Source: Eubacteriales bacterium (GTDB lineage: Bacteria; Bacillota; Clostridia; Oscillospirales; CAG-272). From it: 49,088 bases of DNA. Where the stretch lies: the NCBI GenBank assembly GCA_045133915.1, contig JBGUUX010000049.1:1-49088 (forward strand), given 5' to 3'. Shown piece after piece: positions 26,898-49,088 of this stretch (position 1 is the stretch's first letter; every line of letters starts with the position of its first letter). The position numbers and the translations under genes are program-made. The notes under the pieces were generated by a model, which had not been told where the DNA came from, did not search any database, and saw nothing but the letters and a program-made list of their open reading frames with translations.

Positions 26898-29800
26898 TTA
26901 GTTATTGAAATATTTGAATGCGGAGTTGAAGAGGTTCATCTCGTATGTACCCTCTACGTTCTTGTAGAGACCTGTACCGATACGCTCGCTGTGACCCATC
27001 TTACCAAGAACACGGCCGTCGGGAGATGTGATACCCTCGATTGCGTGAGCGGAGTTGTTGGGGTTGAATGCAATGTCGTATGTAGCGTTACCATCAAGGT
27101 CACAGTACTGAGTAGCGATCTGACCGTTAGCAGCAAGCTTAGCGATAAGCTCGTCGGAGCCAAGGAATCTACCTTCACCGTGGGAGATCGGTACTGTGTA
27201 AACCTCGCCTGCCTTTGTACCCATGAGCCAAGGAGACTTGTTAGAAGCGATTGCTGTACGAACAAGCTTGGACTGGTGGCGTGCGATGGTGTTAAATGTA
27301 AGTGTGGGGCAGTTTTCATCGGTGTCGATGATCTCGCCGTAAGGTACAAGACCGAGCTTGATAAGAGCCTGGAAACCGTTACAGATACCAAGCATCAGAC
27401 CGTCACGGTTGCGAAGGAGCCCGTGAACTGCATCCTTAACAGCCTTGTTACGGAAGAATGCGGTAATGAACTTACCGGAGCCGTCGGGCTCGTCACCGCC
27501 GGAGAAACCGCCGGGGATAGCGATGATCTGTGCGTTCTCAGCCTGCTTTGCAAAGTAATCTACACTATCTGCAATGCCCTGAGCGGTAAGGTTCTTGATA
27601 ACGATGATCTCGGTGTCAAGACCTGCGCGCTGTGCAGCCTTTGCGGTATCAAACTCACAGTTAGTACCGGGGAATACGGGGATAAGTACCTTAGGCTTGG
27701 TAACCTTGGTACGAACCTGAGGATAGGACTCTGCGTTGAATCTGTAGTTCTCAGGCTTTTCGGTATTGAAATCAATATTGCAACGGTAAACGTCCTCAAG
27801 CTTACCTTCGTAGAGCTTATTGAGACCGCAGAGGCAAACCTTTTCGTCACCGAGGGAGATAACACCCTCCTCTACGGTGTAACCGAGAGTTTCGCCAACC
27901 TCTGTGCTGTCTACCATCTCAAGGATGAATGCGCCGTAGTTGTAACCGAAGATGTCAGCCACGGTCATAGCGTCATCGTACTTGAAGCCGATGCCGTTAC
28001 CGATAGCCATCTTGTATACAGCTTCTGCAATACCGCCGAGAGTAGGAGTATAAGCAGCTGCAACCTTACCTGCACGAACAAGCTCAGCAACCTTGTTGTA
28101 GTTTGCAATAAGGCTGTCAGTCTTGGGAAGGTGGTTTTCGTCATACTCGGTGCGAAGGATCGCAACTCTGTGACCTGCAGACTTAAACTCGGGAGAGATA
28201 ATATTCTTTATATCGTCTGTTGTAACAGCGAAGGAAACGAGGGTAGGAGGAACGTCCAGCTTCTCAAAGCTACCGGACATAGAGTCCTTACCGCCGATAG
28301 AACCGATGCCCATGTTCTTCTGAGCCTTGAATGCACCGAGAAGTGCAGCAAGAGGCTTGCCCCAACGCTTTGCGTCTGTACCGGGCTTTTCAAAGTATTC
28401 CTGGAAGGTGAGGTATACGTCCTCGTAGGAAGCACCTGTAGCGATAAGCTTGGAAACAGACTCAACTACCGCAAGGTATGCACCGTGGTAGGGAGACTTT
28501 TCGGTAATAAAAGGATTGTAACCCCAGGACATAAGAGATACTGTAGAGGTATCGCCTGTCTCTGTGGAGATCTTGTTAACCATTGCCTGGATGGGAGTAA
28601 GCTGATACTTACCGCCGAAGGGCATAAGAACTGTGCCTGCGCCAATGGTGGAGTCAAATCTTTCGGAAAGACCGCGCTTGGAGCAGGTGTTAAGGTCGGA
28701 AGCAACTGCCTTGTAGTTATCGGTGAAGCTGCCTTCAACCTTTTTGCAATAGCACTCAGGCTTTGCGGGAGCTATATCAATGTGCTTGGAAGCACCGTTA
28801 CTGTTAAGGAATTCACGGGAGAGGTCAACTATAGCCTTGCCGTTCCAGTGCATTACAAGACGGGCTTCCGCCTGAACCTTTGCTACAACTGTAGCCTCAA
28901 GGTTTTCGCTGTCAGCAAGCTCACAGAAACGCTCAACGTCCTTTGCCTCAACTACAACAGCCATTCTCTCCTGAGACTCGGAGATAGCAAGCTCGGTACC
29001 GTCAAGACCGTCGTACTTCTTGGGAACTGCATTGAGGTCGATCACAAGACCGTCAGCTAATTCTCCGATAGCAACGGATACACCGCCTGCGCCGAAGTCG
29101 TTACAACGCTTGATAAGCTGAGAAGCTTCTTTGTTTCTGAAGAGTCTCTGGAGCTTACGCTCTTCGGGAGCGTTACCCTTCTGAACCTCTGCACCGCAGG
29201 ATTCAAGAGACTGGAGATTGTGAGACTTGGAGGAACCTGTAGCGCCGCCACAGCCGTCACGGCCTGTTCTGCCGCCAAGGAGAACTACGATATCGCCGTC
29301 CTCGGGTCTCTCACGGCGTACGTTCTCAGCGGGAGCAGCTGCGATAACCGCACCGATCTCCATACGCTTAGCCGCATAGCCGTCGTGGTATATTTCGTCA
29401 ACCTGACCGGTTGCAAGACCGATCTGGTTACCGTAGGAGGAGTAACCTGCAGCTGCAGTTGTTACGAGCTTACGCTGAGGAAGCTTACCCTCCATGGTCT
29501 CGGAGATGGGCTTGGTGGGGTCAGCCGCACCTGTTACACGCATAGCTGCGTAAACGTAGCTACGTCCGGACAGGGGGTCACGGATAGCACCGCCGATACA
29601 GGTAGCAGCACCGCCGAAGGGCTCGATCTCGGTAGGATGGTTGTGTGTTTCGTTCTTGAAGAGTAAGAGCCACGGTTCACGCTTGCCGTCGTGCTCAACG
29701 TCGATCTTAACTGTACAAGCGTTGATCTCCTCAGACTCGTCGAGCTTTTCAAGCTTGCCTTCCTTCTTAAGGTATCTTACCGCAAGGGTAGCGATATCCA

Positions 29801-30590
29801 TAAGACATACGGGCTTTGTTCTGCCAAGCTCTTTACGTGTATTTATATAGTCGTTATATGCTTCCTCAAGCAGAGCGTCCTCAAACTTAACGTTATCGAT
29901 CTCGGTTAAGAATGTGGTGTGTCTGCAGTGGTCGGACCAGTATGTATCGATCATACGGATCTCGGTGATAGTGGGGTTACGACCTTCGGTACGGAAGTAG
30001 TCACGGCAGAAACGGATGTCGTCAAGGTCCATTGCAAGACCGAGGTCAGCCATAAGCCCAGAAAGAGACTTGTCGCACATATCGATAAAGCCGTCAACTG
30101 TTGCTACCTCTGTGGGGATTTCATAGTTTACCTTGAGGGTCTCGGGCATATCAAGGGTTGCCTCACGAGCCTCAACAGGGTTGATAACGTACTTCTTGAT
30201 CTTAGCTACGTCATCAGCGGTAAGTGTACCCTCAAGAGCGTAAACTCTTGCAGTACGGATAAGAGGTCTCTCGCCCTGAGAGATGATCTGGATACACTGA
30301 GCCGCAGAGTCTGCGCGCTGGTCATACTGACCGGGCAGATACTCGGTAGCAAATACTACACCGTCCATCTCGGGAAGAGTCTCAAAGGTATCGTCAAGCT
30401 GGGGCTCGGAGAATACGGTGTTAACCGCATAATCAAAGAGATCCTTTTCGATACCCTCGCAGTCATATCTGTTAAAAAGTCTTACCTTGGTAAGGCCCTC
30501 GATACCGAGCAGAGACTTTGCATCGGAGAGAAGGGCTCTTGCCTCGTTGTCAAGACCTGTTTTCTTTTCTACAAAAATTCTAAATACCAT
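26898..30590 (-). CDS. purL: Phosphoribosylformylglycinamidine synthase, large fused PurL+glutaminase form
   Basis: YWSDHCRH, KNETHNHP, DFGAGG, ESQERM, GGKDSMS; glutaminase GICNGFQ and MGHSER. Start ATG 30590 behind AGGTGA. Confidence 0.96.
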   Translation of the reverse strand: MVFRIFVEKKTGLDNEARALLSDAKSLLGIEGLTKVRLFNRYDCEGIEKDLFDYAVNTVFSEPQLDDTFETLPEMDGVVFATEYLPGQYDQRADSAAQCIQIISQGERPLIRTARVYALEGTLTADDVAKIKKYVINPVEAREATLDMPETLKVNYEIPTEVATVDGFIDMCDKSLSGLMADLGLAMDLDDIRFCRDYFRTEGRNPTITEIRMIDTYWSDHCRHTTFLTEIDNVKFEDALLEEAYNDYINTRKELGRTKPVCLMDIATLAVRYLKKEGKLEKLDESEEINACTVKIDVEHDGKREPWLLLFKNETHNHPTEIEPFGGAATCIGGAIRDPLSGRSYVYAAMRVTGAADPTKPISETMEGKLPQRKLVTTAAAGYSSYGNQIGLATGQVDEIYHDGYAAKRMEIGAVIAAAPAENVRRERPEDGDIVVLLGGRTGRDGCGGATGSSKSHNLQSLESCGAEVQKGNAPEERKLQRLFRNKEASQLIKRCNDFGAGGVSVAIGELADGLVIDLNAVPKKYDGLDGTELAISESQERMAVVVEAKDVERFCELADSENLEATVVAKVQAEARLVMHWNGKAIVDLSREFLNSNGASKHIDIAPAKPECYCKKVEGSFTDNYKAVASDLNTCSKRGLSERFDSTIGAGTVLMPFGGKYQLTPIQAMVNKISTETGDTSTVSLMSWGYNPFITEKSPYHGAYLAVVESVSKLIATGASYEDVYLTFQEYFEKPGTDAKRWGKPLAALLGAFKAQKNMGIGSIGGKDSMSGSFEKLDVPPTLVSFAVTTDDIKNIISPEFKSAGHRVAILRTEYDENHLPKTDSLIANYNKVAELVRAGKVAAAYTPTLGGIAEAVYKMAIGNGIGFKYDDAMTVADIFGYNYGAFILEMVDSTEVGETLGYTVEEGVISLGDEKVCLCGLNKLYEGKLEDVYRCNIDFNTEKPENYRFNAESYPQVRTKVTKPKVLIPVFPGTNCEFDTAKAAQRAGLDTEIIVIKNLTAQGIADSVDYFAKQAENAQIIAIPGGFSGGDEPDGSGKFITAFFRNKAVKDAVHGLLRNRDGLMLGICNGFQALIKLGLVPYGEIIDTDENCPTLTFNTIARHQSKLVRTAIASNKSPWLMGTKAGEVYTVPISHGEGRFLGSDELIAKLAANGQIATQYCDLDGNATYDIAFNPNNSAHAIEGITSPDGRVLGKMGHSERIGTGLYKNVEGTYEMNLFNSAFKYFNN

Positions 30591-30600
30591 AAATTTCACC

Positions 30601-36354: not shown

Positions 36355-36777
36355 TTATTTCTGTTTAGCCACGGACTCACAGTAGATACAGCGGTAAACT
36401 CTGTTCTCACGGTCTGTGAGCTTGAACACGTGATCAAGCTCCTGCTCGCAGGAGGTGATACAACGGGGATTCTTGCATTTGATAACATTGGTTATGCTTT
36501 CAGGCAGCTCAAGGTGATGCTTGTCAACTATCTCGCCGTCCTTAATTACGTTAACGGTGATGCCGGGATCGATATAACCGAGAGCCTTAAGGTCGAGCTC
36601 GATGAGCTCGTCTATCTTGATAATGTCCTTCTTACCCATCTTTCCGCTTACCGCATTCTTGATGATGGCAAGGTGACAGTCAAGTCTGTCAAGCTTAAGT
36701 ACACGGTATATCTCCATAGCCATACCTGCCTTGATATGGTCGATAACGTATCCGTTCTTGATGGAATCTATATTCAT
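36355..36777 (-). CDS. pyrI: Aspartate carbamoyltransferase regulatory chain
   Basis: [17 protein letters not shown], zinc motifs CKNPRCIT and CIYCE; ATGA overlap with pyrB. Confidence 0.95.
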
Positions 36778-37691
36778 GCCTCTACCTCCAACAGCTTCAT
36801 AATAAGTGCCATACGGACGTATCTGCCGCAAGCAACCTGCTTAAAGTAACATGCTCTGGGATCATCGTCTATTTCAACCGAGATCTCGTTAACTCTGGGC
36901 AGGGGATGAAGAATGCACATATCCTTGTTTGCATATTCCATCTTATCCTTGGTGAGGATATAGCTGTCCTTAAGACGGATATAGTCAGCCTCGTTAAAGA
37001 AGCGCTCCTGCTGAACACGGGTCATATAAAGGACGTCAAGGTCCTTCATAGCTGCAGTAAGATCTGCAGTCTCTACGTATTCCATATTATTCTTGTCAAG
37101 AACGTCAGTCTTGATGTAAGCAGGAAGCTTAAGCTCATCAGGGGAGATAAGAACGATCTTGATGCCTGTGTGGCGAGAGAGGGCAGAAATAAGAGAGTGT
37201 ACTGTTCTGCCAAACTTAAGGTCGCCGCAGAAGCCGATGGTAAGGTCGTTGAGTCTTCCCTTCTCTCTTCTGATGGTAAGAAGGTCAGTGAGGGTCTGTG
37301 TGGGATGGAAATGACCGCCGTCACCTGCGTTGATTATCGGCACGTTGCTCTTGAAGGTAGCAACAAGGGGCGCACCCTCTTTAGGATGACGCATAGCGAT
37401 GATGTCAGAATAGCAGGAAACTACCTGTATAGTATCGGAAACGCTCTCGCCCTTGGAAGCTGAAGAACTCTTAGCCTCAGAGAAGCCAAGCACACTACCG
37501 CCCAGAGAAAGCATAGCAGACTCAAAGGAAAGACGGGTACGTGTGGAGGGCTCGAAGAAAAGGGTAGCAAGCTTCTTGTACTTACAAACGTCACGGTACT
37601 TATCGGGGTTAGCGATAATATCATCCGCACGGTCAAGAAGCTCTGTTATTTCCTCTGTTGTAAAATCTAAAATATCAATTAAATGTCTCAT
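36774..37691 (-). CDS. pyrB: Aspartate carbamoyltransferase catalytic chain
   Basis: [32 protein letters not shown]. Confidence 0.97.
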
Positions 37692-38320
37692 TTGTTTATC
37701 CAGCTTTCGTCAGAGGGATTAGCTCTGAATTTCTTAAGTCTTTCGATATCCTCAGCCTTGATGTAACCGATCTCAGCCGCAACCTCGCATACTGTATCAA
37801 AGTCGGTAAGGCTGGTGTTAACTACGTTAGCTGCAGCCATACGGTCGATACCCTTCTGCATACCGTATGTGAAGATGGAAACAACGCCAAGAACCTCAGC
37901 GCCTGCCTCACGGAGAACGTCAACTACTTCAAGAACAGAGCCGCCTGTGGAGATAAGGTCCTCGATTACAACTACCTTCTGACCGGGAAGAAGTTTACCC
38001 TCGATCTGGTTCTGTCTGCCGTGGTCCTTTGCGCCACTACGTACGTAACCCATAGGCATATCAAGCATATGAGCGGTGATAGCTGCGTGTGCAATACCTG
38101 CGGTGCTTGTACCCATAAGTACTTCACACTCGGGGTAAAGCTCCTTAACCTTCTGCGCAAGAGAAGACTCGATAAGAGTTCTTACCTCGGGAGCTGTAAG
38201 GGTGAGTCTGTTATCACAATAAATAGGGCTCTTGATGCCGCTTGCCCAGGTAAAGGGCTCGTCGGGACGAAGAAAAACTGCACCTATGGAAAGTAAACCT
38301 TTTGCTACTGCTTTATTCAT
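37688..38320 (-). CDS. pyrE: Orotate phosphoribosyltransferase
   Basis: [31 protein letters not shown]. Confidence 0.97.
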
Positions 38321-38352: not shown

Positions 38353-39051
38353 TCAGTCGCAGAACTCAGCAACACATCTTCTGTATGCTGCAACGGGATC
38401 CCCTGCCGCTGTGATAGGTCTGCCCACAACGATGTAGTCGGAGCCGATCTCCTTAGCCTTAGCGGGAGTGGTTACACGAACCTGATCGCCGATGTCACCG
38501 TCAGCAAAACGTACACCGGGAGTAACGGTAAGAAATTCCTTGCCGCACTTTTCCTTAACCTTGCCTGCCTCAAGGGGAGAACAAACAACACCGTCAAGAC
38601 CTGCAAGCTTTGCATTGTGAGCGTAGTGCATAACTACCTCGTCGATAGGCTTTTCGATAAGCAGATCGTTTGTCATACGCTCCTGGCTTGTGGAGGTAAG
38701 CTGAGTTACAGCGATAAGAAGGGGTCTTGTACCGTCGGGACGGGTAAGGCCTTCAAGAGCAGCCTCCATCATAGCGATGGTACCGCTTGCGTGGAGGTTA
38801 CACATGTCTACGTTGAGGCTGGAAAGAACAGCCATAGACTTCTTAACTGTGTTGGGAATATCGTGGAGCTTGAGGTCAAGGAATATCTTGTGTCCTCTCT
38901 CCTTAAGCTTTCTTACCATATCGGCACCTGCCGCATAGTAGAGCTCCATACCGATCTTTACGTAGGGCTTTTCTTCCTTAAAATTATCAAGGAACTTTAA
39001 TGTTGCTTCCTCTGACGAAAAGTCACAGGCAATGATAACGTCGCGTCCCAT
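38353..39051 (-). CDS. pyrF: Orotidine-5'-phosphate decarboxylase
   Basis: IFLDLKLHDIPNT, VTQLTS, TPGVR, VVGRPIT. Confidence 0.97.
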   Translation of the reverse strand: MGRDVIIACDFSSEEATLKFLDNFKEEKPYVKIGMELYYAAGADMVRKLKERGHKIFLDLKLHDIPNTVKKSMAVLSSLNVDMCNLHASGTIAMMEAALEGLTRPDGTRPLLIAVTQLTSTSQERMTNDLLIEKPIDEVVMHYAHNAKLAGLDGVVCSPLEAGKVKEKCGKEFLTVTPGVRFADGDIGDQVRVTTPAKAKEIGSDYIVVGRPITAAGDPVAAYRRCVAEFCD

Positions 39052-39965
39052 CAGTGTGCGCCTCCTATTATATCTGTTAATTTATCAATTTTGTATTTTT
39101 CCATTACTCGGGGAAGATCCTCGATGATATCACGGCAAGCGTAGGGGTTGACAAGGTTTGCCGCGCCTACCTGAACTGCCGTTGCTCCGCAGAGCATCAT
39201 TTCTATTACGTCCTCGGCTGTGGTAACACCACCCATACCGATGATCGGGATGTTAACTGCCTCGTATACCTGATATACCATACGAAGGGCTACGGGAAGG
39301 ATAGCAGAGCCGGAGAAGCCGCCCATCTTGTTTGCTACAACAGGCTTCTTTGTACGAAGATCCACTCTCATACCGAGAAGGGTATTGATCATAGAAAGAC
39401 CGTCTGCACCTGCCTCTTCGCACGCCTTTGCGATAGAAACGATATCTGTTACGTTGGGGCTTAATTTAATGTATACAGGCTTTGTGGTAACCGCCTTTAC
39501 AGCCTTTGTTACGGCTGCCGCGTTCTCACAGCTTGTACCGAAAGCCATACCGCCGTTATGAACGTTGGGACAGCTTATATTTACTTCAATAATGCCTACG
39601 TCAGGCTCTTTGTCAATTTTCTCGCAGGTGTAAACGTACTCGTCGATAGAAAATCCGCTTACGTTTGCCACTACCTTTTTGTTAAATACCTTACGCATCT
39701 TGGGCAGCTCTTCTGCGATGACCTTTTCAACACCTGGGTTCTGAAGACCTACAGAGTTGATCATACCCATATTACATTCTGCAATTCTGGGTGTGGGGTT
39801 GCCGAAGCGTGGATCCTTGGTCGTTCCCTTAAAGGAGAAGGAACCAAGAACGTTAATATCATAAAGTTCAGCAAACTCATAGCCGAAGCCGAACGTGCCG
39901 CTGGCGGGGATAATGGGATTGTCAAGCTCCCATCCGGAGAGCGTTACTTTTAAATCTTTCATCAT
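39051..39965 (-). CDS. pyrD: Dihydroorotate dehydrogenase family 1B, catalytic subunit
   Basis: ASGTFG, GNPTPRIAE, NISCPNV, KLSPN, IIGMGG. Confidence 0.96.
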   Translation of the reverse strand: MMKDLKVTLSGWELDNPIIPASGTFGFGYEFAELYDINVLGSFSFKGTTKDPRFGNPTPRIAECNMGMINSVGLQNPGVEKVIAEELPKMRKVFNKKVVANVSGFSIDEYVYTCEKIDKEPDVGIIEVNISCPNVHNGGMAFGTSCENAAAVTKAVKAVTTKPVYIKLSPNVTDIVSIAKACEEAGADGLSMINTLLGMRVDLRTKKPVVANKMGGFSGSAILPVALRMVYQVYEAVNIPIIGMGGVTTAEDVIEMMLCGATAVQVGAANLVNPYACRDIIEDLPRVMEKYKIDKLTDIIGGAH

Positions 39966-40708
39966 TACGCCTCCTTATCCCAAAGAATTTCGTCACTTAC
40001 AAGGACAGGACCTTCCTTGCAGATACGCTTGTTGCCGTAGATCGTCTTGCAGCTGCAACCCATACAAGCGCCAAATCCGCAGCCCATTCTTTCTTCAAAG
40101 GAGAGCTGACCCTTCTTGTCACTTGTTTTATAGAGAGCCTTTAACATAGGCTCGGGACCGCAGGCAGAGTAATCTGTGTAATCTATATCACAGAGAGCGT
40201 TTGTTACAAAGCCCTTTGTGCCGAGAGAGCCGTCAACGGTGGTAACGATAACCTTTGCGCCGAGAGCCTCAAACTCTTCCTTATAAAATACTTCGGAAGC
40301 GGTATTAAAGCCGAGGATAGCGGTAACTTCCTTACCTTCTGCGATAAGAGCCTTGGCAAGACCGTACATAGGGGGAACACCAACGCCGCCGCCTACAACT
40401 ACGGGCTTGTCACCGCACTTTGCGGTATCAAAGCCGTTACCCAGACCGCAGAGAACGTCAAGGGTCTGACCCTCTGTCATGCCCTTCATCTTCTCAGTAC
40501 CCTTGCCCACCACCTTGTAGATAATGGTGATCTCCTTGTCGTTATAATCGCAAACAGAGATAGGACGGCGAAGATAAAGACCTTCAAGCGCTATGTTTAT
40601 AAACTGACCGGGATTGGTCAAGGCAGAGGTGTCTCCCGCGAGACGCATAAGATATACGTCCCGTGTGAGCGCTCTGTTTTCTAATATCGTATAAATACCT
40701 TTTGTCAT
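39965..40708 (-). CDS. pyrK: Dihydroorotate dehydrogenase electron-transfer subunit
   Basis: PGQF, RRPIS, GGGVG, ACGP, 2Fe-2S motif MGCGFGACMGC...CKEGP. Confidence 0.95.
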   Translation of the reverse strand: MTKGIYTILENRALTRDVYLMRLAGDTSALTNPGQFINIALEGLYLRRPISVCDYNDKEITIIYKVVGKGTEKMKGMTEGQTLDVLCGLGNGFDTAKCGDKPVVVGGGVGVPPMYGLAKALIAEGKEVTAILGFNTASEVFYKEEFEALGAKVIVTTVDGSLGTKGFVTNALCDIDYTDYSACGPEPMLKALYKTSDKKGQLSFEERMGCGFGACMGCSCKTIYGNKRICKEGPVLVSDEILWDKEA

Positions 40709-40709
40709 A

Positions 40710-43700
40710 TTAAGAATCTATTGTTGAGATGCAGAGAGTTGTCTCTTCAAGAACGTCGAGAAGAACTCTTACTGTATCAAGTGCGGTGAACATGGTTACG
40801 TTGTTTTCAGCAGCACAACGGCGGATCTCAAAGCCGTCGGAGCTGTGAGAATCACGGTTGATGTCGCGGGAAGAGATAACGTAGTTTACGTGACCCTGTC
40901 TGATAGAACGAAGTATCTCGTCGCTACCCTCGCTTATCTTCTTCATAACGTGGGTACGGATTCCGTTAGCCTTAAGGAAGTTTGCGGTACCCTGAGTAGC
41001 CTCGATATTGAAGCCAAGGTTATAGAAGCGGCGGATAAGAGGAAGTGCCTCTTCCTTATCGGAGTCTGCGATAGAAACGAAGATAGTACCGTAGTTTACT
41101 ACGTTCATACCGGAGGACTGAAGAGCCTTATAGAGCGCTCTTGTCAGCTTGTCGTCATAACCGATAGCCTCACCTGTGGACTTCATTTCGGGTGAGAGGT
41201 ATGCGTCAAGACCTCTGATCTTGGAGAAGGAGAATGCGGGAACCTTAACGTACCATCTCTTCTTCTCTTCGGGATATACTACTTCGATACCCTGATCCTT
41301 GAGAGTTTCGCCAAGCATTACCTTGGTACCGATATCAGCCAGAGACCAACCTGTAGCCTTAGAAAGGAAGGGTACGGTTCTGGAGGAACGGGGGTTAACC
41401 TCGATGATATATACGTCCTCGTTTGCATCAACTATGAACTGGATGTTGTAGAGACCTACGATGCCTATACCAAGACCGAGACGCTTGGTGTAGTCAAGGA
41501 TAGTATCCTTTACCTTCTGGCTTACGGAGAAGGTGGGGTATACGGAGATAGAGTCACCGGAGTGGATACCTGTACGCTCAACGTGCTCCATGATGCCGGG
41601 AACGAAAACGTCCTTGCCGTCGCAAACTGCGTCAACCTCAAGCTCCTTACCGAAGATATACTTGTCAACAAGTACGGGGTTGTCAGAGTCAAGCTTGATT
41701 GCTGTATTAAGGTAGGTTCTGAGAGCCTCTTCGTTTGCAACGATCTGCATTGCACGACCGCCAAGCACGTAGCTGGGACGAACAAGTACGGGATAGCCAA
41801 TCTCGGTAGCTGCTCTTACACCAGCCTCGATATCAGTTACTGCCTGACCCTTAGGCTGGGGAATGTCAAGCTCATGAAGGATCTTCTCAAAGGAGTCTCT
41901 GTTTTCTGCACGCTCGATAGCCTCAAAGTCTGTACCGATGAGCTTAACGCCGTGCTTCATAAGGGGCTGAGCAAGGTTGATAGCGGTCTGACCGCCGAGG
42001 GATGCAACAACACCAAGGGGCTTTTCCAGCTCGATAACGTTCATAACGTCCTCAACGGTAAGGGGCTCGAAGTAGAGCTTGTCACTTACGGTATAGTCTG
42101 TAGAAACGGTCTCGGGGTTGTTGTTTATGATGATCGCCTCATAGCCTGAATTCTTGATGGTCTGTACCGCATGAACGGTGGAGTAGTCAAACTCGACACC
42201 CTGACCGATACGGATAGGACCTGAACCGAGAACTATGATCTTCTTTCTGTCTGTAACAACAGATTCGTTTTCCTGCTCGTAGGTGGAGTACATATAAGAA
42301 ACGTAGCCGTCATACTCACCTGCGCAGGTGTCGATCATCTTGTATACGGGGAAGAGGTTGTTGTCCTTTCTGAACTTGTAAACCTCTGTTTCGGGACAGT
42401 TCCATACCTTAGCAATGAACTTGTCCGAAACGCCCATTCTCTTTGCCTCGTACATGGTGTCGTAGTCAAAGGGATTAGCGGTAAGTGTATGCTCGAAGTC
42501 GATGATGTTCTTATACTTTTCAAGGAAGAGCATATCGATCTGTGTCTTGTCGCAGATAACGCCAAGGTCAACACCGATACGGATAAGCTGAGCGATAGCA
42601 AAGATACGGTCGTCGGTACCGTCCTTGATGTAGTCAAGAAGCTCGTTGACGCTCATCTCGTCAAACTTTGCCATATGGAGATGGCATACGCCGATCTCAA
42701 GAGAACGAACTGCCTTGAGAAGACACTCTTCAAGGGTACGTCCGATACTCATTACCTCACCTGTAGCCTTCATCTGTGTGGAGAGCTTGTTGGAGGCGGT
42801 AGCAAACTTATCGAAGGGGAATCTTGCAACCTTGGCTACAACGTAGTCAAGCGCAGGTTCAAAACTTGCAGGAGTAGTGGAAAGCATGATCTCGTCAAGA
42901 GTGAGACCTACCGCTACCTTTGCGGTGATACGTGCGATAGGATATCCGCTTGCCTTAGAAGCAAGAGCGGAGGAACGGGATACACGGGGGTTAACCTCGA
43001 TGAGGTAGTAGTCAAAGGACTGAGGGTCAAGAGCAAACTGTACGTTACAGCCGCCTTCGATCTCAAGTGCGCGGATCAGCTTAAGAGCTGAGTCACGGAG
43101 GATGTGATATTCCTTGCTGGTAAGTGTCTGACAGGGAGCAACAACGATAGAGTCACCTGTGTGGATACCAACAGGGTCGATATTTTCCATAGAACATACG
43201 GTAATAGCGGTGTCGTTAGAGTCACGCATTACCTCGAACTCGATCTCCTTATAGCCCTTGATAGACTTTTCTACAAGAACCTGAGAAACGGGAGAGAGTG
43301 CAAGAGCGTTCTTCATTATATCAACAAGCTCGGTCTCGTTATCAGCAAAGCCGCCGCCTGTACCGCCCAGGGTAAATGCGGGACGAAGAACTACGGGATA
43401 ACCGATCTTTTCTGCAATAGCCTTACCCTCTTCAATGGTGTTTGCTACGTCGGAGGGAAGCACGGGCTCACCCAGGTCAAGACAAAGCTGCTTGAAGAGC
43501 TCACGGTCCTCTGCGCGCTCGATGGACTCGCACTTTGTACCGAGAAGCTTAACACGGCACTCGTCGAGAATACCCTTACGTGCAAGCTGCATAGCAAGGT
43601 TAAGACCTGTCTGACCGCCAAGGCCGGGGATGATAGCGTCGGGACGCTCGTAACGGAGGATCTTAGCAACGTATTCAAGGGTAAGAGGCTCCATGTATAC

Positions 43701-43889
43701 CTTATCTGCAATAGTGGTATCGGTCATGATGGTAGCGGGGTTGGAGTTACAGAGGATAACCTCATAGCCCTCTTCCTTAAGCGCAAGACAAGCCTGTGTG
43801 CCTGCGTAGTCAAACTCTGCCGCCTGACCGATAACTATAGGACCTGAACCTATAACCAGTATCTTCTTTATGTCGGTTCTCTTAGGCAT
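40710..43889 (-). CDS. carB: Carbamoyl-phosphate synthase large subunit
   Basis: MPKRTDI, GSGPIVIGQAAEFDY, two ATP-grasp units (RPAFTLGG, RPSYVLGG; IEVNPR twice), C-terminal MGS-like domain. Confidence 0.98.
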   Translation of the reverse strand: MPKRTDIKKILVIGSGPIVIGQAAEFDYAGTQACLALKEEGYEVILCNSNPATIMTDTTIADKVYMEPLTLEYVAKILRYERPDAIIPGLGGQTGLNLAMQLARKGILDECRVKLLGTKCESIERAEDRELFKQLCLDLGEPVLPSDVANTIEEGKAIAEKIGYPVVLRPAFTLGGTGGGFADNETELVDIMKNALALSPVSQVLVEKSIKGYKEIEFEVMRDSNDTAITVCSMENIDPVGIHTGDSIVVAPCQTLTSKEYHILRDSALKLIRALEIEGGCNVQFALDPQSFDYYLIEVNPRVSRSSALASKASGYPIARITAKVAVGLTLDEIMLSTTPASFEPALDYVVAKVARFPFDKFATASNKLSTQMKATGEVMSIGRTLEECLLKAVRSLEIGVCHLHMAKFDEMSVNELLDYIKDGTDDRIFAIAQLIRIGVDLGVICDKTQIDMLFLEKYKNIIDFEHTLTANPFDYDTMYEAKRMGVSDKFIAKVWNCPETEVYKFRKDNNLFPVYKMIDTCAGEYDGYVSYMYSTYEQENESVVTDRKKIIVLGSGPIRIGQGVEFDYSTVHAVQTIKNSGYEAIIINNNPETVSTDYTVSDKLYFEPLTVEDVMNVIELEKPLGVVASLGGQTAINLAQPLMKHGVKLIGTDFEAIERAENRDSFEKILHELDIPQPKGQAVTDIEAGVRAATEIGYPVLVRPSYVLGGRAMQIVANEEALRTYLNTAIKLDSDNPVLVDKYIFGKELEVDAVCDGKDVFVPGIMEHVERTGIHSGDSISVYPTFSVSQKVKDTILDYTKRLGLGIGIVGLYNIQFIVDANEDVYIIEVNPRSSRTVPFLSKATGWSLADIGTKVMLGETLKDQGIEVVYPEEKKRWYVKVPAFSFSKIRGLDAYLSPEMKSTGEAIGYDDKLTRALYKALQSSGMNVVNYGTIFVSIADSDKEEALPLIRRFYNLGFNIEATQGTANFLKANGIRTHVMKKISEGSDEILRSIRQGHVNYVISSRDINRDSHSSDGFEIRRCAAENNVTMFTALDTVRVLLDVLEETTLCISTIDS

Positions 43890-44982
43890 TCTCCTTTACC
43901 TCCTTCATCATGCTTACAAACTTATCATAGAGATTTTCGCAGTCCTTGGGTCTTACTGTGTTGTCAACCTCAAACTGAACGGCGAACATATTGTCTTCTT
44001 TGTTTTCTACACCTGCGATAGTGCCCTCAATAACGTTCTGGTGAGTAACTGTGAGAGCTGTGTTCTTAAGGCTCTCGGGCTCAACGGTGTAGGAGTGGAT
44101 CTGGTTTACCACGTCAACGCGGTTGTTGATGAGGTTTCTTACGGGATGGCTTCCGCCGCCGTGACCGAACTTCATCTTGTAGCAGGATGCACCGTATGCC
44201 ATACAGATGAGCTCAAAGCCAAGGGAGATACCGAACATGGGGTACTTGCCCTTTAATTCCTTGATAAGGTCAATAACCACGGGAACGTCTGCAGGATTGC
44301 CGGGGCCGTCGGAGATAAGGATTCCGTCGGGGTTCATACCCTCGATTATTCTTGCCTCGGTGTTGTAAGGAACAACTGTTACGTTACATCCGCGCGCGTT
44401 AAGCTCCTTGATAACGCTGAGCTTGGTGCCGCAGTCAACCACAACTACGTTGTACTTAGGCTTAAAGGTACGGCTGTACCATCTCTTCTTGCAACTTACT
44501 CTTGCAACTGCATCGGTGGGAAGCTCGTGGGTCTGCATATATTCGATAGCCTCTTCCTTAGGCTTGTCAGCATCGCAGATATAAACCTTGCAGCTGCCGT
44601 TATCTCTTATTTTACGGGTAAGCATACGGGTATCTATTCCCTCAATTGCGGGAATGTGGTTTTCCTCAAGGATCTCGGAGAGAGTCTTGGTATATCTGAA
44701 GTTACTGGGAGAGTCGTTATACTCTCTTACGATAAGACCGCCGATGGTGGGGACTTTAGTTTCAAAATCCTCCTCTGCGATACCGTAGTTACCGATAAGG
44801 GGATAGGTCATAAGCACCATATCGTCTGTATAACCGGGGTCGGAAATTACCTCTTGGTAGCCTACCATAGCGGTGTTCATAAGAAGCTCGCACATAGCTT
44901 CAACCTTGGTGTCACCAAAGCCGAAACCGTAATATTCCTGACCGTCCTCGGTCACTATCTTTCTGTCATACTTGATTGCCAT
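43882..44982 (-). CDS. carA: Carbamoyl-phosphate synthase small subunit, full length but lacking the glutaminase catalytic residues
   Basis: NTAMVGYQE, TYPLIGNYG, GIDTRMLT, GPG retained; catalytic motifs read GISLGFE and QFEVD. Confidence 0.93.
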   Translation of the reverse strand: MAIKYDRKIVTEDGQEYYGFGFGDTKVEAMCELLMNTAMVGYQEVISDPGYTDDMVLMTYPLIGNYGIAEEDFETKVPTIGGLIVREYNDSPSNFRYTKTLSEILEENHIPAIEGIDTRMLTRKIRDNGSCKVYICDADKPKEEAIEYMQTHELPTDAVARVSCKKRWYSRTFKPKYNVVVVDCGTKLSVIKELNARGCNVTVVPYNTEARIIEGMNPDGILISDGPGNPADVPVVIDLIKELKGKYPMFGISLGFELICMAYGASCYKMKFGHGGGSHPVRNLINNRVDVVNQIHSYTVEPESLKNTALTVTHQNVIEGTIAGVENKEDNMFAVQFEVDNTVRPKDCENLYDKFVSMMKEVKENA

Positions 44983-46202
44983 ACTATCCTCCTGTTAATT
45001 ACTGTCATTATACATTCACCGTAGACCTCTTTACCTGCAAAGGGTGTTATCTTACCCATTGAAAGAAAGTCGTTAGGATCAATTACATATTTTCTGTCGG
45101 TAGAAAGCACCGTGAAGCTATCCTCTGATGCCGGAATACCGAAACGTTTTCTGGGATTTGTTATCATAAGCTCAAGGAGCTTTTCCATACTGATCACACC
45201 CGGCTTTACAAGCTCGGTGTACATGATGGGGAACGCAGTCTCTATACCGGTTATTCCCATGGGGCTCTTTGCAAGACCGAGAGACTTTTCTTCGGTGGTG
45301 TGAGGAGCGTGGTCGGTTGCTATCATATCTATGGTACCGTCGATTATACCCTCACGAAGCGCCATCATATCTTCTCTGCTGCGAAGAGGCGGATTCATCT
45401 TGAATCTTGCGTCTTCCTGCAGATCTTCATCACAAAGTACTAAGTAATGAGGTCCTGTTTCGCAGGTGACCGGCAAGCCCTTTGCCTTAGCCTGTCTTAT
45501 CAGCTCCACGCTTTCCTTGGTTGAGATGTGGCATACGTGATATTCACATCCTGTCTCTTCGACCAATTTAAGGTCTCTTTCTATCTGCTTCCATTCGCTT
45601 TCGTTTGAAATGCCCTTGTGTCCGTGAGCTCTCTGATAAGCGCAGGAGTTTATATATCCGCCGAAGAGAAGCGAATTGTCCTCGCAGTGGGCTGCTATTA
45701 TTTTACCGAGGCTCTTTGCCTTCAGCATCGCCGCCCTCATCATATCGTCCGACTGGACTCCTCTGCCGTCGTCCGAGAAGCCGCAGACCTTGTCTGCCAT
45801 GCCCTCAAGGTCGGCAAGCTCCTGCCCTACTTCCATCATCGTGATAGAGCCGTAGGGATGAACGTTTATTACCGCATCCCTTTCGATGATATCCAACTGC
45901 TTTTGCAGGGTCTCGGGTGTATCAGGTACCGGGTTTAAGTTAGGCATACTGCATACGTCGGTATAACCGCCTCTTGCTGCCGCCTTTGTTCCCGTTGCCA
46001 CCCTTTCTTTCATAGAAAAGCCCGGCTCTCTCAGATGAACATGAACATCCAAGAAACCGGGTGAAAAAATACAATTATCAAATTCACAAAGAACCTCTTC
46101 GCCCATAGGAGCAAAAGAAGCTTTTCCTTCATTAATATATACGTCACGGGAAGAAATGTTACCGTCGATCAGACATAATGCGTTTTTTAACTTGATCTGC
46201 AT
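44955..46202 (-). CDS. pyrC: Dihydroorotase (type I)
   Basis: DVHVHLREPG, MPN..P..D, FSDDG, HCED, KMNPPLR, ATDHAPH. Confidence 0.96.
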   Translation of the reverse strand: MQIKLKNALCLIDGNISSRDVYINEGKASFAPMGEEVLCEFDNCIFSPGFLDVHVHLREPGFSMKERVATGTKAAARGGYTDVCSMPNLNPVPDTPETLQKQLDIIERDAVINVHPYGSITMMEVGQELADLEGMADKVCGFSDDGRGVQSDDMMRAAMLKAKSLGKIIAAHCEDNSLLFGGYINSCAYQRAHGHKGISNESEWKQIERDLKLVEETGCEYHVCHISTKESVELIRQAKAKGLPVTCETGPHYLVLCDEDLQEDARFKMNPPLRSREDMMALREGIIDGTIDMIATDHAPHTTEEKSLGLAKSPMGITGIETAFPIMYTELVKPGVISMEKLLELMITNPRKRFGIPASEDSFTVLSTDRKYVIDPNDFLSMGKITPFAGKEVYGECIMTVINRRIVWQSSMTER

Positions 46203-46700: not shown

Positions 46701-49088
46701 ATGAATATCACAAAAAGAGTGCTTGCTGTCTTAATGATCCTTGCAATGCTGCTCCCTACAATTCCGACTATCATCGTTGCAGCGGATGCTTCTGCAACCG
46801 TCTTCTTTAACTCTAACGGCGGTTCAGGCGGCCCCGGTAAGGTTACCGCAACAGTTGGAACTAAATTAACGATCCCTACACCCAATCCCACCAAGTCCGG
46901 AATGGTATTCCGTGGTTGGGCTACAACTGCAGAAAAAGCAGCAATAGGCGATATCGCTTATTCTGCAGGAACTTCTGTTACTGTAAACGGAGATATGACT
47001 CTGTATGCAAGTTACGCATACACGGTTACTCTCAAATGCGGTAACGAAGGTGCAGGAACAGCTTCCAAGACCCTTTACAAGTTCCCTGCTAAGGAGTTAA
47101 CTCTTTATCACGACAAGGCTACCGTAAAAGCAAACTACGGTATGTATCCCAAGAATAATGACCAGCGTTCCTTTATCGAATGGAACACCAAGCAGGATTC
47201 CACCACCTCCAAGGGTACCGGTACATCCTATTATCTCAATTACACAAATAACGCTTCCGTAACCCTCTATGCTATCTGGGGTTATCCCATCCAGTATAAC
47301 GCTGACGGCGGATACTTTCCTCTCACAGGTGACAGCATATTCCTCAAGTACGTTTGCGGTTATGACGACAATAACTATCAGAACCCCAAGACACTTTACG
47401 GTAACTTTGATTTCCCTCAGGGATCCAACAAACCCGTAAAGGACGGCTGCCGTCTTTACACACAAAGCGGAACCGTGTTCTACGCTCTGCTTTATGCTGA
47501 CTTATCATTTTTCACCACAGAAACCGCACAGCAGAACCTTACCATTCCTCCTACGGGCGGAAAGCTTCCCTGGAACGTATTCCATACCGCTACCACCGAA
47601 AACGGTACCACCGCAGTTGAGTTCCCCGCTATCTGGGAGCCCTCTGTAACCTATAAGGCAAACGGCGGTTCCGGCAAAGACGTGGTAGAATGGATCTCAT
47701 GGGACTGGGACGGTCTCCATATGTACAAGTCCTATAAAGTAAGAAGTAACAGTTTTACCAAATCAGGCGCTTCTTTTAAGGGTTGGAACACCGAGCCTGA
47801 CGGTAGCGGAAAAGCTTATGCCGCAGGCGCAACCATATATCACGATTCTTCAGACCCCATCGTACTTTACGCACAGTGGTCTGACGGCACCAAGGGTGCG
47901 CGCGCTACCGAAAAGCACACAGTAAGATTTGATGCCAACGGCGGCAGCAATGCTCCCGCTTCTCAGACCAAGTATTGGGGAACCATCCTCACCTTAACCA
48001 CCCAGACACCGGTACGTCCCGGATATAAGTTTATGGGTTGGGGTCCCGGTAAGTTCTCAAATACCGTAACGTATAAGCCCGGCGCTCTCTACGGTGTAGA
48101 CGTAGATTCCAAGCTCTATGCGGTATGGGAAGAGTGCAAGACTCACTCTTACGCAAAGGTATCCTCCACCGCATCTACCTGCACAACACAGGGCAAGGTT
48201 ACTTATACTTGTTCAGTCTGCAAGCTGAGCTATGACGAATACCTTGATTATACTCACACCTGGGGCAGCTGGAAATCTAACGGCAACGGTACCGATTCCA
48301 GAAGCTGTACCGTATGCGGTACTACCGAAACCAGGGACGCGCTGTGCAACCACGTATACGATAACGGCAAGGTAACTCAAGACGCTACTTGTACCAAGAT
48401 AGGCGTTAAGACCTACACATGTACTCTCTGCGGCGAAAGCTACGAAGAAAGCATCGCTATGCTGAAGCATTCCTTTACAAACTACGTTTCCGATAACAAC
48501 GCAACCTGTAAGAATGATTCAACAGCAAGAGCATACTGTGATTACGGTTGCGGCAGATATTCGCTGACCGTTGAAAAAGGAACAAAGCTGGATCACGTAT
48601 TTACAACCTATACCTTTGACAACAATGCAACCTGTAATAGCTCTGGAACACAAACCGCGTACTGTGATTTCGGTTGTAATAACACCAACACCATACCTTA
48701 TGACGGCGATACCGTTGAACATAAGTATACCGTATACACATCCAACGCAGACGCTACCTGTACTACAGACGGCACAAAGACCGCTTACTGCGACTACGGT
48801 TGTAACAACAGTGTAACAGTACCCGACGAGGGCTCCAAGCTCGGTCATAATTTTGGCACCTGGATAATCACAACACCTCCCACAACCACGTCAAGCGGTG
48901 TTGAAACAAAATATTGCAGCCGTTGTGACGCTACCGAAACAAGATCGGTTCCTAAGATCGGTGCACCCGTCATTTCTATTGACAATTACACCGTAACCAT
49001 CACCAATGCGAACCTTATCAAAGATATAAGATACGCAGTAGGAACTTACTCTACCGGTACCGCAATCAAAGCAGCCGAGGGCAACGTA
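46701..49088 (+). CDS. Large secreted/surface protein with InlB B-type (Listeria-Bacteroides) repeats and Cys/His-rich repeats; 3'-truncated and absent from the ORF track
   Basis: Hand translation is open for 796 codons to the window end: signal peptide MNITKRVLAVLMILAMLL..; repeats F(N/D)xNGG..F.GW..LYAxW; then seven H..(A)TC..G..C-x2/3-C units. Confidence 0.9.
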   Translation, partial: MNITKRVLAVLMILAMLLPTIPTIIVAADASATVFFNSNGGSGGPGKVTATVGTKLTIPTPNPTKSGMVFRGWATTAEKAAIGDIAYSAGTSVTVNGDMTLYASYAYTVTLKCGNEGAGTASKTLYKFPAKELTLYHDKATVKANYGMYPKNNDQRSFIEWNTKQDSTTSKGTGTSYYLNYTNNASVTLYAIWGYPIQYNADGGYFPLTGDSIFLKYVCGYDDNNYQNPKTLYGNFDFPQGSNKPVKDGCRLYTQSGTVFYALLYADLSFFTTETAQQNLTIPPTGGKLPWNVFHTATTENGTTAVEFPAIWEPSVTYKANGGSGKDVVEWISWDWDGLHMYKSYKVRSNSFTKSGASFKGWNTEPDGSGKAYAAGATIYHDSSDPIVLYAQWSDGTKGARATEKHTVRFDANGGSNAPASQTKYWGTILTLTTQTPVRPGYKFMGWGPGKFSNTVTYKPGALYGVDVDSKLYAVWEECKTHSYAKVSSTASTCTTQGKVTYTCSVCKLSYDEYLDYTHTWGSWKSNGNGTDSRSCTVCGTTETRDALCNHVYDNGKVTQDATCTKIGVKTYTCTLCGESYEESIAMLKHSFTNYVSDNNATCKNDSTARAYCDYGCGRYSLTVEKGTKLDHVFTTYTFDNNATCNSSGTQTAYCDFGCNNTNTIPYDGDTVEHKYTVYTSNADATCTTDGTKTAYCDYGCNNSVTVPDEGSKLGHNFGTWIITTPPTTTSSGVETKYCSRCDATETRSVPKIGAPVISIDNYTVTITNANLIKDIRYAVGTYSTGTAIKAAEGNV

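Follow-up and report, generated by a model that had tools for sequence, protein, structure and literature searches.

Carbamoyl phosphate synthetase (CPS) of Escherichia coli is a glutamine-dependent enzyme composed of a small subunit, CarA, and a large subunit, CarB. According to Charlier et al. 2018 (PMC6245113), Cys269 and His353 of CarA are essential, CarB is able to use ammonia at high concentration, and the small subunit contacts two CarB domains, the carboxyphosphate and the oligomerisation domain. Human CPS1 carries Ser294 in place of the Cys, its ancestral tunnel is blocked and external ammonia, which is its substrate, takes an alternative path, as set out by de Cima et al. 2015 (PMC4655335). 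CarB2 of Bacteroides thetaiotaomicron (BT3866) is an orphan large subunit which is needed on ammonium and is proposed from fitness data to be an ammonium-dependent CPS, and the same source, like published reviews, says of the bacterial CPSs found so far that all depend on glutamine (PMC8121099, Liu et al.). The subject of this study is the carA gene in a 49,088-nucleotide stretch of DNA (the window) from a Eubacteriales bacterium of the Oscillospirales (contig JBGUUX010000049.1, assembly GCA_045133915.1), in which all three residues of the Cys-His-Glu glutaminase triad are replaced. The enzyme is probably a CPS that depends on ammonia, keeps its small subunit as a pseudo-glutaminase and serves pyrimidine as well as arginine synthesis, a design reached by convergence with animal CPS I.

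Like animal CPS I (PDB 5DOU/5DOT; EC 6.3.4.16), the window CarA keeps a glutaminase-like domain in which the nucleophile Cys has become Ser, and external ammonia would likewise be its substrate. Unlike CPS1, which is a fused polypeptide needing N-acetylglutamate, the two subunits are encoded here by overlapping genes with their own start codons. The CPS1 triad is incomplete at Cys only according to PMC4655335, whereas the window CarA has other residues at all three triad positions and at the glutamine contacts. What blocks the CPS1 tunnel is Gln318, the counterpart of E. coli Gly293, whereas the window CarA appears from the alignment to keep a Gly there (Gly277) and to have Arg344 at the position of Gly359. 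Finally, the window CarA scores 229 bits against E. coli CarA versus 170 against CPS1 and nests among CarA proteins of Clostridia; judged on sequence, the shared design is one of convergence and not of descent.

The window enzyme has the same two-subunit architecture as E. coli CarA-CarB (PDB 1JDB, 1C30), with identical CarB gate residues and a predicted interface in which the CarA N-terminal domain and loops of the glutamine amidotransferase (GATase) domain meet the same two CarB domains. Unlike the glutamine-dependent E. coli enzyme and its C269S mutant, with one engineered change, it carries 25 natural replacements at conserved columns. With CarB2 it shares a gut bacterium as host and a CPS without a working glutaminase; unlike CarB2, which lacks a small subunit and occurs alongside a normal CarAB, the window keeps a conserved, apparently dead CarA and has no glutamine-dependent back-up. 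The CarB2-type arrangement, carB without carA, is absent from the window and present in 8 of 41 related genomes, a sample in which ten genomes (G000-G009, the window's own included) make up the genus. A literature search with supplements outside its scope turned up nothing published on a triad-less bacterial CarA, and the orphan CarB2 of Bacteroides was the only bacterial precedent found. The window enzyme is a putative two-subunit analogue of CPS I in a lineage which also shows loss of carA. To our knowledge, textbooks do not credit bacteria with an ammonia-dependent CPS.

The glutaminase site of CarA and its predicted docking on CarB

The carA open reading frame (ORF) is full length and uninterrupted and overlaps its two neighbours (Table 1), as an earlier note on this DNA had stated. 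Pfam recognises PF00988 (CPSase_sm_chain) at residues 10-135 (E 5.7e-43) and PF00117 (class I GATase) at residues 180-357 (E 3.1e-37), and the protein scores above the family threshold of NCBIfam TIGR01368 (375.4 bits versus a cut-off of 307.35) and of NF009475 (370.2 versus 221). The AlphaFold2 (AF2) model of CarA alone has a mean pLDDT of 93.9 and a pTM of 0.92, with the lowest block at residues 341-350 (76). By family score, by its folded two-domain architecture and by adjacency to carB and predicted docking on its product, CarA belongs to the family; it departs from it in the Cys-His-Glu triad and in the glutamine contacts, where it has Gly50, Glu257 and Ile295 instead. Protein databases label it 'glutamine-hydrolyzing'.

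In the HMMER alignment to E. coli CarA, from which all residue equivalences are taken, the triad residues C269, H353 and E355 correspond to S253, E338 and D340. Around them, H272 is replaced by F256, Q273 by E257, N311 by I295, G313 by S297, P354 by V339 and G359 by R344, and in the N-terminal domain S47 is replaced by Gly50 and Q51 by Asp54. We take S47, Q273 and N311 of E. coli CarA to be glutamine contacts, as in the Thoden/Raushel structures, and G359 is presumably the Gly at the tunnel mouth. The motif readings of the earlier note are borne out: the nucleophile motif is FGISLGFE (residues 250-257), with the Ser codon TCC given at 44224-44226 and read at 44226-44224; the His-x-Glu motif is QFEVD at 43963-43977, within VQFEVD (335-340); and SQNHG is replaced by VNQIHS, within VNQIHSY (292-298). 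The PurL glutaminase encoded in the same window (26898..30599, minus strand) has its GICNGFQ (residue 1071) and HSE (residue 1203) motifs intact, the internal control that had been invoked. The best match of the window CarA in the PDB is the engineered C269S chain 1c30_B (229.5 bits), the wild type scoring 227.2. A relocated nucleophile was also considered, given a Thr267 to Cys change fixed in the genus, but the model places this Cys beyond the helix leading off from the nucleophile elbow, probably distant from the pocket, and the candidate was rejected.

The extent of the remodelling can be gauged against 129 homologues with an intact triad, in which Cys, His and Glu are each present in 129/129 and 111 columns are at least 95% conserved. 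Twenty-five of these 111 columns are replaced and fixed in the genus CarA, and they are spread unevenly, with 4/44 in the N-terminal domain (two of the four in the DPSY motif) versus 21/67 in the remainder. The 21 include the triad, the His-Gln of GICLGHQ and the Asn of SQNHG, as well as Arg275 to Gly, Asn278 to Ser and Gly344 to Arg. The substitution pattern, as read from this alignment, is far beyond chance.

Table 1. Coordinates of carA, its replaced residues and the neighbouring pyrimidine genes in the window
Feature	Position	Strand	Basis or remark
carA, CPS small subunit with glutaminase site that appears inactivated, 366 residues	43882..44982	-	ORF, Pfam, NCBIfam, AF2 model
Ribosome-binding site of carA, AGGAGG	44988..44993	-	5 nucleotides upstream of ATG, within 3' end of pyrC; read from sequence
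DPGYTDD, replacing N-terminal DPSYxxQ (S47 to Gly50, Q51 to Asp54)	44821..44835	-	Ser and Gln each 129/129 in active homologues
Ser253 codon TCC, replacing nucleophile Cys (E. coli C269)	44224..44226	-	Alignment; TCC in 7 and TCT in 1 of the genus
Phe256-Glu257, replacing His-Gln of GICLGHQ (E. coli H272, Q273)	44212..44217	-	His 128/129, Gln 129/129 in active homologues
Ile295, replacing Asn of SQNHG (E. coli N311)	44098..44100	-	Asn 128/129 in active homologues
Glu338-Val339-Asp340, replacing His-Pro-Glu (E. coli H353, P354, E355)	43963..43971	-	Each 129/129 in active homologues
Arg344, replacing invariant Gly (E. coli G359), in loop predicted to meet CarB	43951..43953	-	Gly 129/129 in active homologues
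carB, CPS large subunit, 1059 residues, complete	40710..43889	-	Start overlaps carA stop by 8 nucleotides; NF003671 1486 bits, TIGR01369 1452 bits
pyrC (dihydroorotase), first operon gene	44955..46202	-	Overlaps carA by 28 nucleotides; ORF, Pfam, NCBIfam
pyrK	39965-40708	-	NCBIfam scan
pyrD	39051-39965	-	NCBIfam scan
pyrF	38353-39051	-	NCBIfam scan
pyrE	37688-38320	-	NCBIfam scan
pyrB	36774-37691	-	NCBIfam scan
pyrI	36355-36831	-	NCBIfam scan

The retention of the N-terminal docking motifs, also claimed in the earlier note, agrees with the few columns replaced in this domain and with the docking predicted by modelling. A complex of CarA with CarB residues 1-553 was predicted in three runs with three controls; it reaches ipSAE values of 0.91, 0.90 and 0.90 versus 0.00 for the best control, with a partner pLDDT of 92 and a contact agreement of at least 94%. 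The same ipSAE mark is met by 58/80 solved complexes and by 2/110 mismatched pairs, and since the E. coli CarAB structure is solved, the pass may reflect mere likeness and is not proof of binding. The predicted interface consists of CarA residues 35-127, 276-291, 317-318 and 342-346 and, on CarB, the carboxyphosphate and oligomerisation domains, which puts Arg344, flanked by the interface residues 342-343 and 345-346, in a CarB-meeting loop. Within the genus 2/53 predicted interface residues vary versus 41/310 elsewhere, a difference which is not significant (Fisher p = 0.063). With high confidence the model suggests that the dead CarA docks on CarB.

CarB itself is little changed. The tunnel-gate residues C232, A251 and A314 of the E. 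coli enzyme are conserved, as C232, A251 and A313 of the window CarB, and in the first ~500 residues only 5/192 conserved columns differ in the genus (V45I, I78L, L87I, I325V and P355A), four of these changes being conservative and the fifth P355A. By the same measure the count is 2-7 in 17 lineages whose partner is active, and 16 and 18 in the two closest sisters, which have changes in common. Co-adaptation of CarB to the dead CarA was considered and is not seen in the N-terminal half, the half compared, where the count is not above that of lineages with active partners and the gate is intact.

Conservation in the genus and losses among its relatives

The carA gene is present in 8/10 genus genomes at 90-98% identity, and FGISLGFE, VNQIHSY and VQFEVD are found in all eight as well as in seven named genus records of metagenome-assembled genomes (MAGs). 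It is free of frameshifts and internal stops across the eight species. Metagenome contigs from three independent DNA runs span carA, the longest of which (43826-45335, 1510 bases) has 13 differences from the window, and none of the 12 that are listed lies at a triad codon. That the substitutions are errors of sequencing or assembly, which the earlier note had thought unlikely, can be given no credence, as the same residues recur in eight separately assembled species and seven MAG records and the gene is covered by contigs of three further runs. At the RNA level, one metatranscriptome run provides two short carA contigs, 43806-43925 with no differences and 43999-44149 with one.

The ratio of nonsynonymous to synonymous substitutions (dN/dS) was estimated by the Nei-Gojobori method for 28 pairs, which share ancestry and so are not independent, at a median dS of ~1. 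The median dN/dS is 0.048 for the whole of carA, 0.041 for its N-terminal domain and 0.046 for its GATase domain; for the first 500 codons of carB it is 0.026 and for pyrC 0.069. The replacement residues are held through synonymous turnover across the genus, with TCC and TCT for Ser253, GAG and GAA for both Glu257 and Glu338, GAC and GAT for Asp340, four Val codons for Val339, ATC, ATA and ATT for Ile295 and AGA, CGC and CGT for Arg344. The dead domain and its replacement residues are under strong purifying selection. An active comparator pair (L013/L014) gives 0.07 for the whole gene at a dS of 1.9 and another (L047/L049) is not computable, and because dS is saturated in the active pairs these do not provide a clean comparison with an active domain. 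Simple decay, which would be recognised by relatives all with Cys and His and by a ratio near 1, is contradicted by a dN/dS of ~0.05 and by Ser, Glu and Asp being fixed in 8/8.

It is highly improbable for the same reasons that CarA is a functionless relic in an operon that is being lost from cells that obtain pyrimidines and arginine by salvage. Both carA and carB are indeed missing from one genus genome (G004, 93% complete), and CTP synthase is found in 0/10 genus genomes, hence some salvage is probably needed anyway. Against this stand the low dN/dS at a median dS of ~1 over eight species, the absence of frameshifts and internal stops, the nine intact operon genes and the still lower ratio of carB.

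Among the 41 genomes the CarA N-terminal domain is found in 27, comprising the eight Ser/Glu/Asp proteins of the genus, 17 with C/H/E, one with C/H/D (G029) and one with only G/Y/E (G031), so that 18/41 have a CarA with Cys and His and 9/41 only a triad-less CarA. A full CarB without a CarA domain occurs in 8/41 (G005, G010, G011, G016, G019, G026, G037 and G040, which are 90, 72, 98, 94, 89, 97, 100 and 98% complete, respectively), and six have neither subunit (G004, G012, G013, G018, G022 and G023). In this sample, 17 of the 35 genomes that hold CarB have a dead CarA or none. Four of the CarA-less genomes (G005, G011, G037 and G040) have carB as the gene immediately after pyrC. G005, which is labelled by the tool as the same genus, has pyrC and carB separated by 26 nucleotides (G005:C7, L068:1-3251) and no carA in a 90%-complete genome, its CarB being 72% identical to that of the window. 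G037, G011 and G040 (L069, L070 and L071), from three other families of the order, have pyrC-carB-pyrK-pyrD-pyrF without carA in genomes that are 98-100% complete. The loss in the genus belongs to a broader trend in the order, which extends to outright loss of carA.

Additional copies were also encountered. A second carB of full length, at a distance from carA, is present in each of G031, G039 and G020. In G009, a MAG that also holds pyrC-carA-carB, a 5' piece of a second carB (G009:C17:1-1949, L066) encodes a protein 97.8% identical to the window CarB, with its own AGGAGG and 38 upstream bases that do not resemble the 3' end of carA; a carA-less strain variant and a mixture introduced by binning are two possible sources, and the exact 33-nucleotide pattern of the junction gives 0 matches in metagenome_contigs. 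G025 (99% complete) has a second CarA-like gene beside a normal carA (G025:C67, L034), with 27% identity, the triad state G/L/C and a branch length >4.

A search of 5.8 billion proteins gives 9 sequences without C/H/E among the top 120 matches. Of 120 full-length representatives at 50% identity, 41 are without C/H/E, mostly by Cys to Gly, a share that is not a prevalence because the degenerate query and the faster evolution of dead copies bias it. Independent triad-less lineages carry G/Q/D, G/Y/A, G/D/V or G/Y/E at the triad positions. These states bear on the idea that the site has been rebuilt, with Ser253, Glu338 and Asp340 forming an alternative triad that releases ammonia to CarB from a donor other than glutamine. 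Serine-carboxyl triads of this type occur in sedolisins. All three residues could form such a Ser/acid/acid triad, each is held through synonymous changes, and the whole pocket was remodelled and then frozen, to judge from the dN/dS of the GATase domain. The idea is nevertheless improbable: the invariant Gly presumed to line the tunnel mouth has become Arg344, the independent lineages carry unrelated residues, as expected of a dead site, relatives drop the small subunit altogether, and no candidate substrate is known.

The divergence of CarA is concentrated in one domain. Compared with the two closest active relatives in the genome sample, G021 and G017, the GATase domain is 50-53% identical, the N-terminal domain 62-69%, CarB 77% and PyrC 56-59%, and G021 and G017 share 84% and 82% identity with each other in the two CarA domains. 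A mixture-model tree was computed with IQ-TREE from 62 rows (4/9 genus rows, 10 triad-less, 18 active from the genomes and 30/111 active database proteins, of which 16 were hand-picked and 14 random). The genus forms a clade with a support of 100 and a stem of 0.51 substitutions per site. The clade is sister to the active protein P0002 (SH-aLRT 96) and nested among short-branched active proteins. Since this long-stem clade adjoins an active homologue, the triad loss in the genus is independent of the other losses, and the starred branches of the tree require at least five changes of triad state; the mapping of triad states that the earlier note had suggested thus arrives at a separate loss. 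The history of the genus reads, on these sequences, as a burst of change in one CarA domain followed by stasis. A FastTree phylogeny of the 50%-identity representatives placed the query within an 18-row group made up entirely of 'lost' rows, and this grouping is distrusted because the set is without the 60-65% identical active relatives, whereas the mixture-model tree, which includes them, puts the genus beside an active protein.

Nitrogen supply of the enzyme

The genes of the pyrimidine operon lie in the order pyrC-carA-carB-pyrK-pyrD-pyrF-pyrE-pyrB-pyrI, and all nine are intact and score as family members. The window's genome (82% complete), G006 (98%) and G008 (97%) each have one carA and one carB. 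The second, intact carA that the earlier note had suggested looking for is not found in G006 and G008, nor is a second carB. No carbamate kinase scores above the cut-off, the best match reaching 31 bits versus 358. An anabolic argF (TIGR00658, 427.7 bits versus a cut-off of 280.85) lies beside argD in an arg cluster elsewhere in the genome, and the same enzyme must therefore also feed arginine.

It is proposed that the folded pseudo-glutaminase CarA docks on CarB but neither binds nor hydrolyses glutamine. If it can do neither, CarA-CarB would take free cytoplasmic ammonia, like animal CPS I and, in vitro, E. coli CarB, and the carbamoyl phosphate would go to the pyrimidine operon and to the arginine pathway. 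The small subunit may have been retained for a stabilising, activating or gating effect on CarB, and Arg344 together with the new acidic residues may close or fill the old site and the mouth of the tunnel. The ammonia-rich ruminant gut would make an ammonia-dependent CPS workable. Near-identical DNA is present in 20 runs from 13 studies, labelled as bovine gut, gut or terrestrial metagenome, and related MAG records name the caecum of goat and water buffalo. The earlier note had gone as far as a CPS1-like convergent design and ammonia-fed pyrimidine synthesis; the design is supported by the triad loss, the selection, the sole enzyme and the predicted docking, from which the use of ammonia itself is inferred.

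A distinctly improbable alternative is that ammonia is delivered to CarB by a separate glutaminase or another ammonia-releasing enzyme for which the dead CarA serves as an adaptor, so that the CPS would in effect still depend on an amide. Such an arrangement would give the conservation of CarA a reason, and glutamine is available, given the glutamine synthetase genes (three matches in each of G000, G006 and G008). However, apart from carA, these three genomes encode a class I amidotransferase domain only in hisH, which lies in the his operon with intact GICLGMQ and QFHPE motifs, and the pyrimidine operon has no extra gene. We know of no separate-supplier arrangement for any CPS. One of the glutamine synthetase matches has an in-frame stop (TAA or TGA) in G008:C5:8310-9224 and in G006:C23:8986-9891, which might mean a disrupted copy or a pair of neighbouring genes.

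Several points weigh against an ammonia-dependent enzyme. The ammonia level that E. coli CPS requires is called 'likely physiologically irrelevant' in PMC6245113. As CarB has no compensating change and its gate is unchanged, how its affinity for ammonia would rise is left unexplained. Ser, Glu and Asp are a chemically possible triad, so that complete catalytic death is a conclusion drawn from the replacements. The CarA-less relatives show that a small subunit is dispensable for CarB, which leaves open the reason for keeping a dead one. The claim of a sole enzyme rests on two sister species because the genome of the window reaches a completeness of only 82%, and the support for carA expression is weak, coming from two short contigs of a single RNA run that may contain carried-over DNA.

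A more far-reaching reading, which is possible but unlikely, holds that the rebuilt pocket (Ser253, Glu257, Glu338, Asp340, Asp54, Asp225 and Arg344, each frozen by selection) is a new functional site and more than a scaffold, and that the genus and its relatives mark a large group of gut Clostridia building nucleotides and arginine mainly from free ammonia. In E. coli, bound glutamine puts CarB into an activated state, and the pocket might lock CarB in that state for good; alternatively, ammonium might be captured and gated by it where the subunits meet, which would give a physiological affinity for ammonia. The broader part of this reading draws on a GuaA without a GATase domain, on the lack of CTP synthase and of AmtB and on the relatives without carA. 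The GuaA protein is an ATP-pyrophosphatase of 333 residues covering profile positions 195-512 of 512 (L065:781-1779 in G006; C1:3-791 in the window's own genome). No partner GATase for it is found in G006, where PF00117 matches carA and hisH only, and GMP synthase may represent a second ammonia-dependent amidotransfer step. The CTP synthase N-terminal domain (PF06418) is found in 0/10 genus genomes, those 98% and 97% complete among them, and in 16/41 overall, with the control detected in 14/14, and a tblastn search with PyrG of relatives gives no match in the window's genome. The AmtB ammonium transporter (PF00909) is found in 0/3 genus genomes searched (G000, G006 and G008).

Should the ammonia-dependent CPS with its retained pseudo-glutaminase be real, no known chemistry would let the sole CPS of a ruminant-gut genus use glutamine. 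For many Clostridia of gut and rumen, the nitrogen source and Enzyme Commission (EC) number given in metabolic models and automatic annotation would then have to be corrected, and the level of ammonia would directly control the supply of pyrimidines and arginine in these bacteria. The active, dead-but-kept and deleted small subunits within one order would form a natural series on the role of a pseudo-enzyme subunit and on the origin of CPS I.

Two further observations may be added. The pathway to UMP is complete though CTP synthase is not found, salvage being one possible route to CTP. A large ORF on the plus strand (46701-49088) runs past the end of the window and encodes at least 796 residues with a signal-like N-terminus and many repeats of Cys-rich and Thr-rich modules, probably a repeat protein that is secreted or lies on the cell surface.

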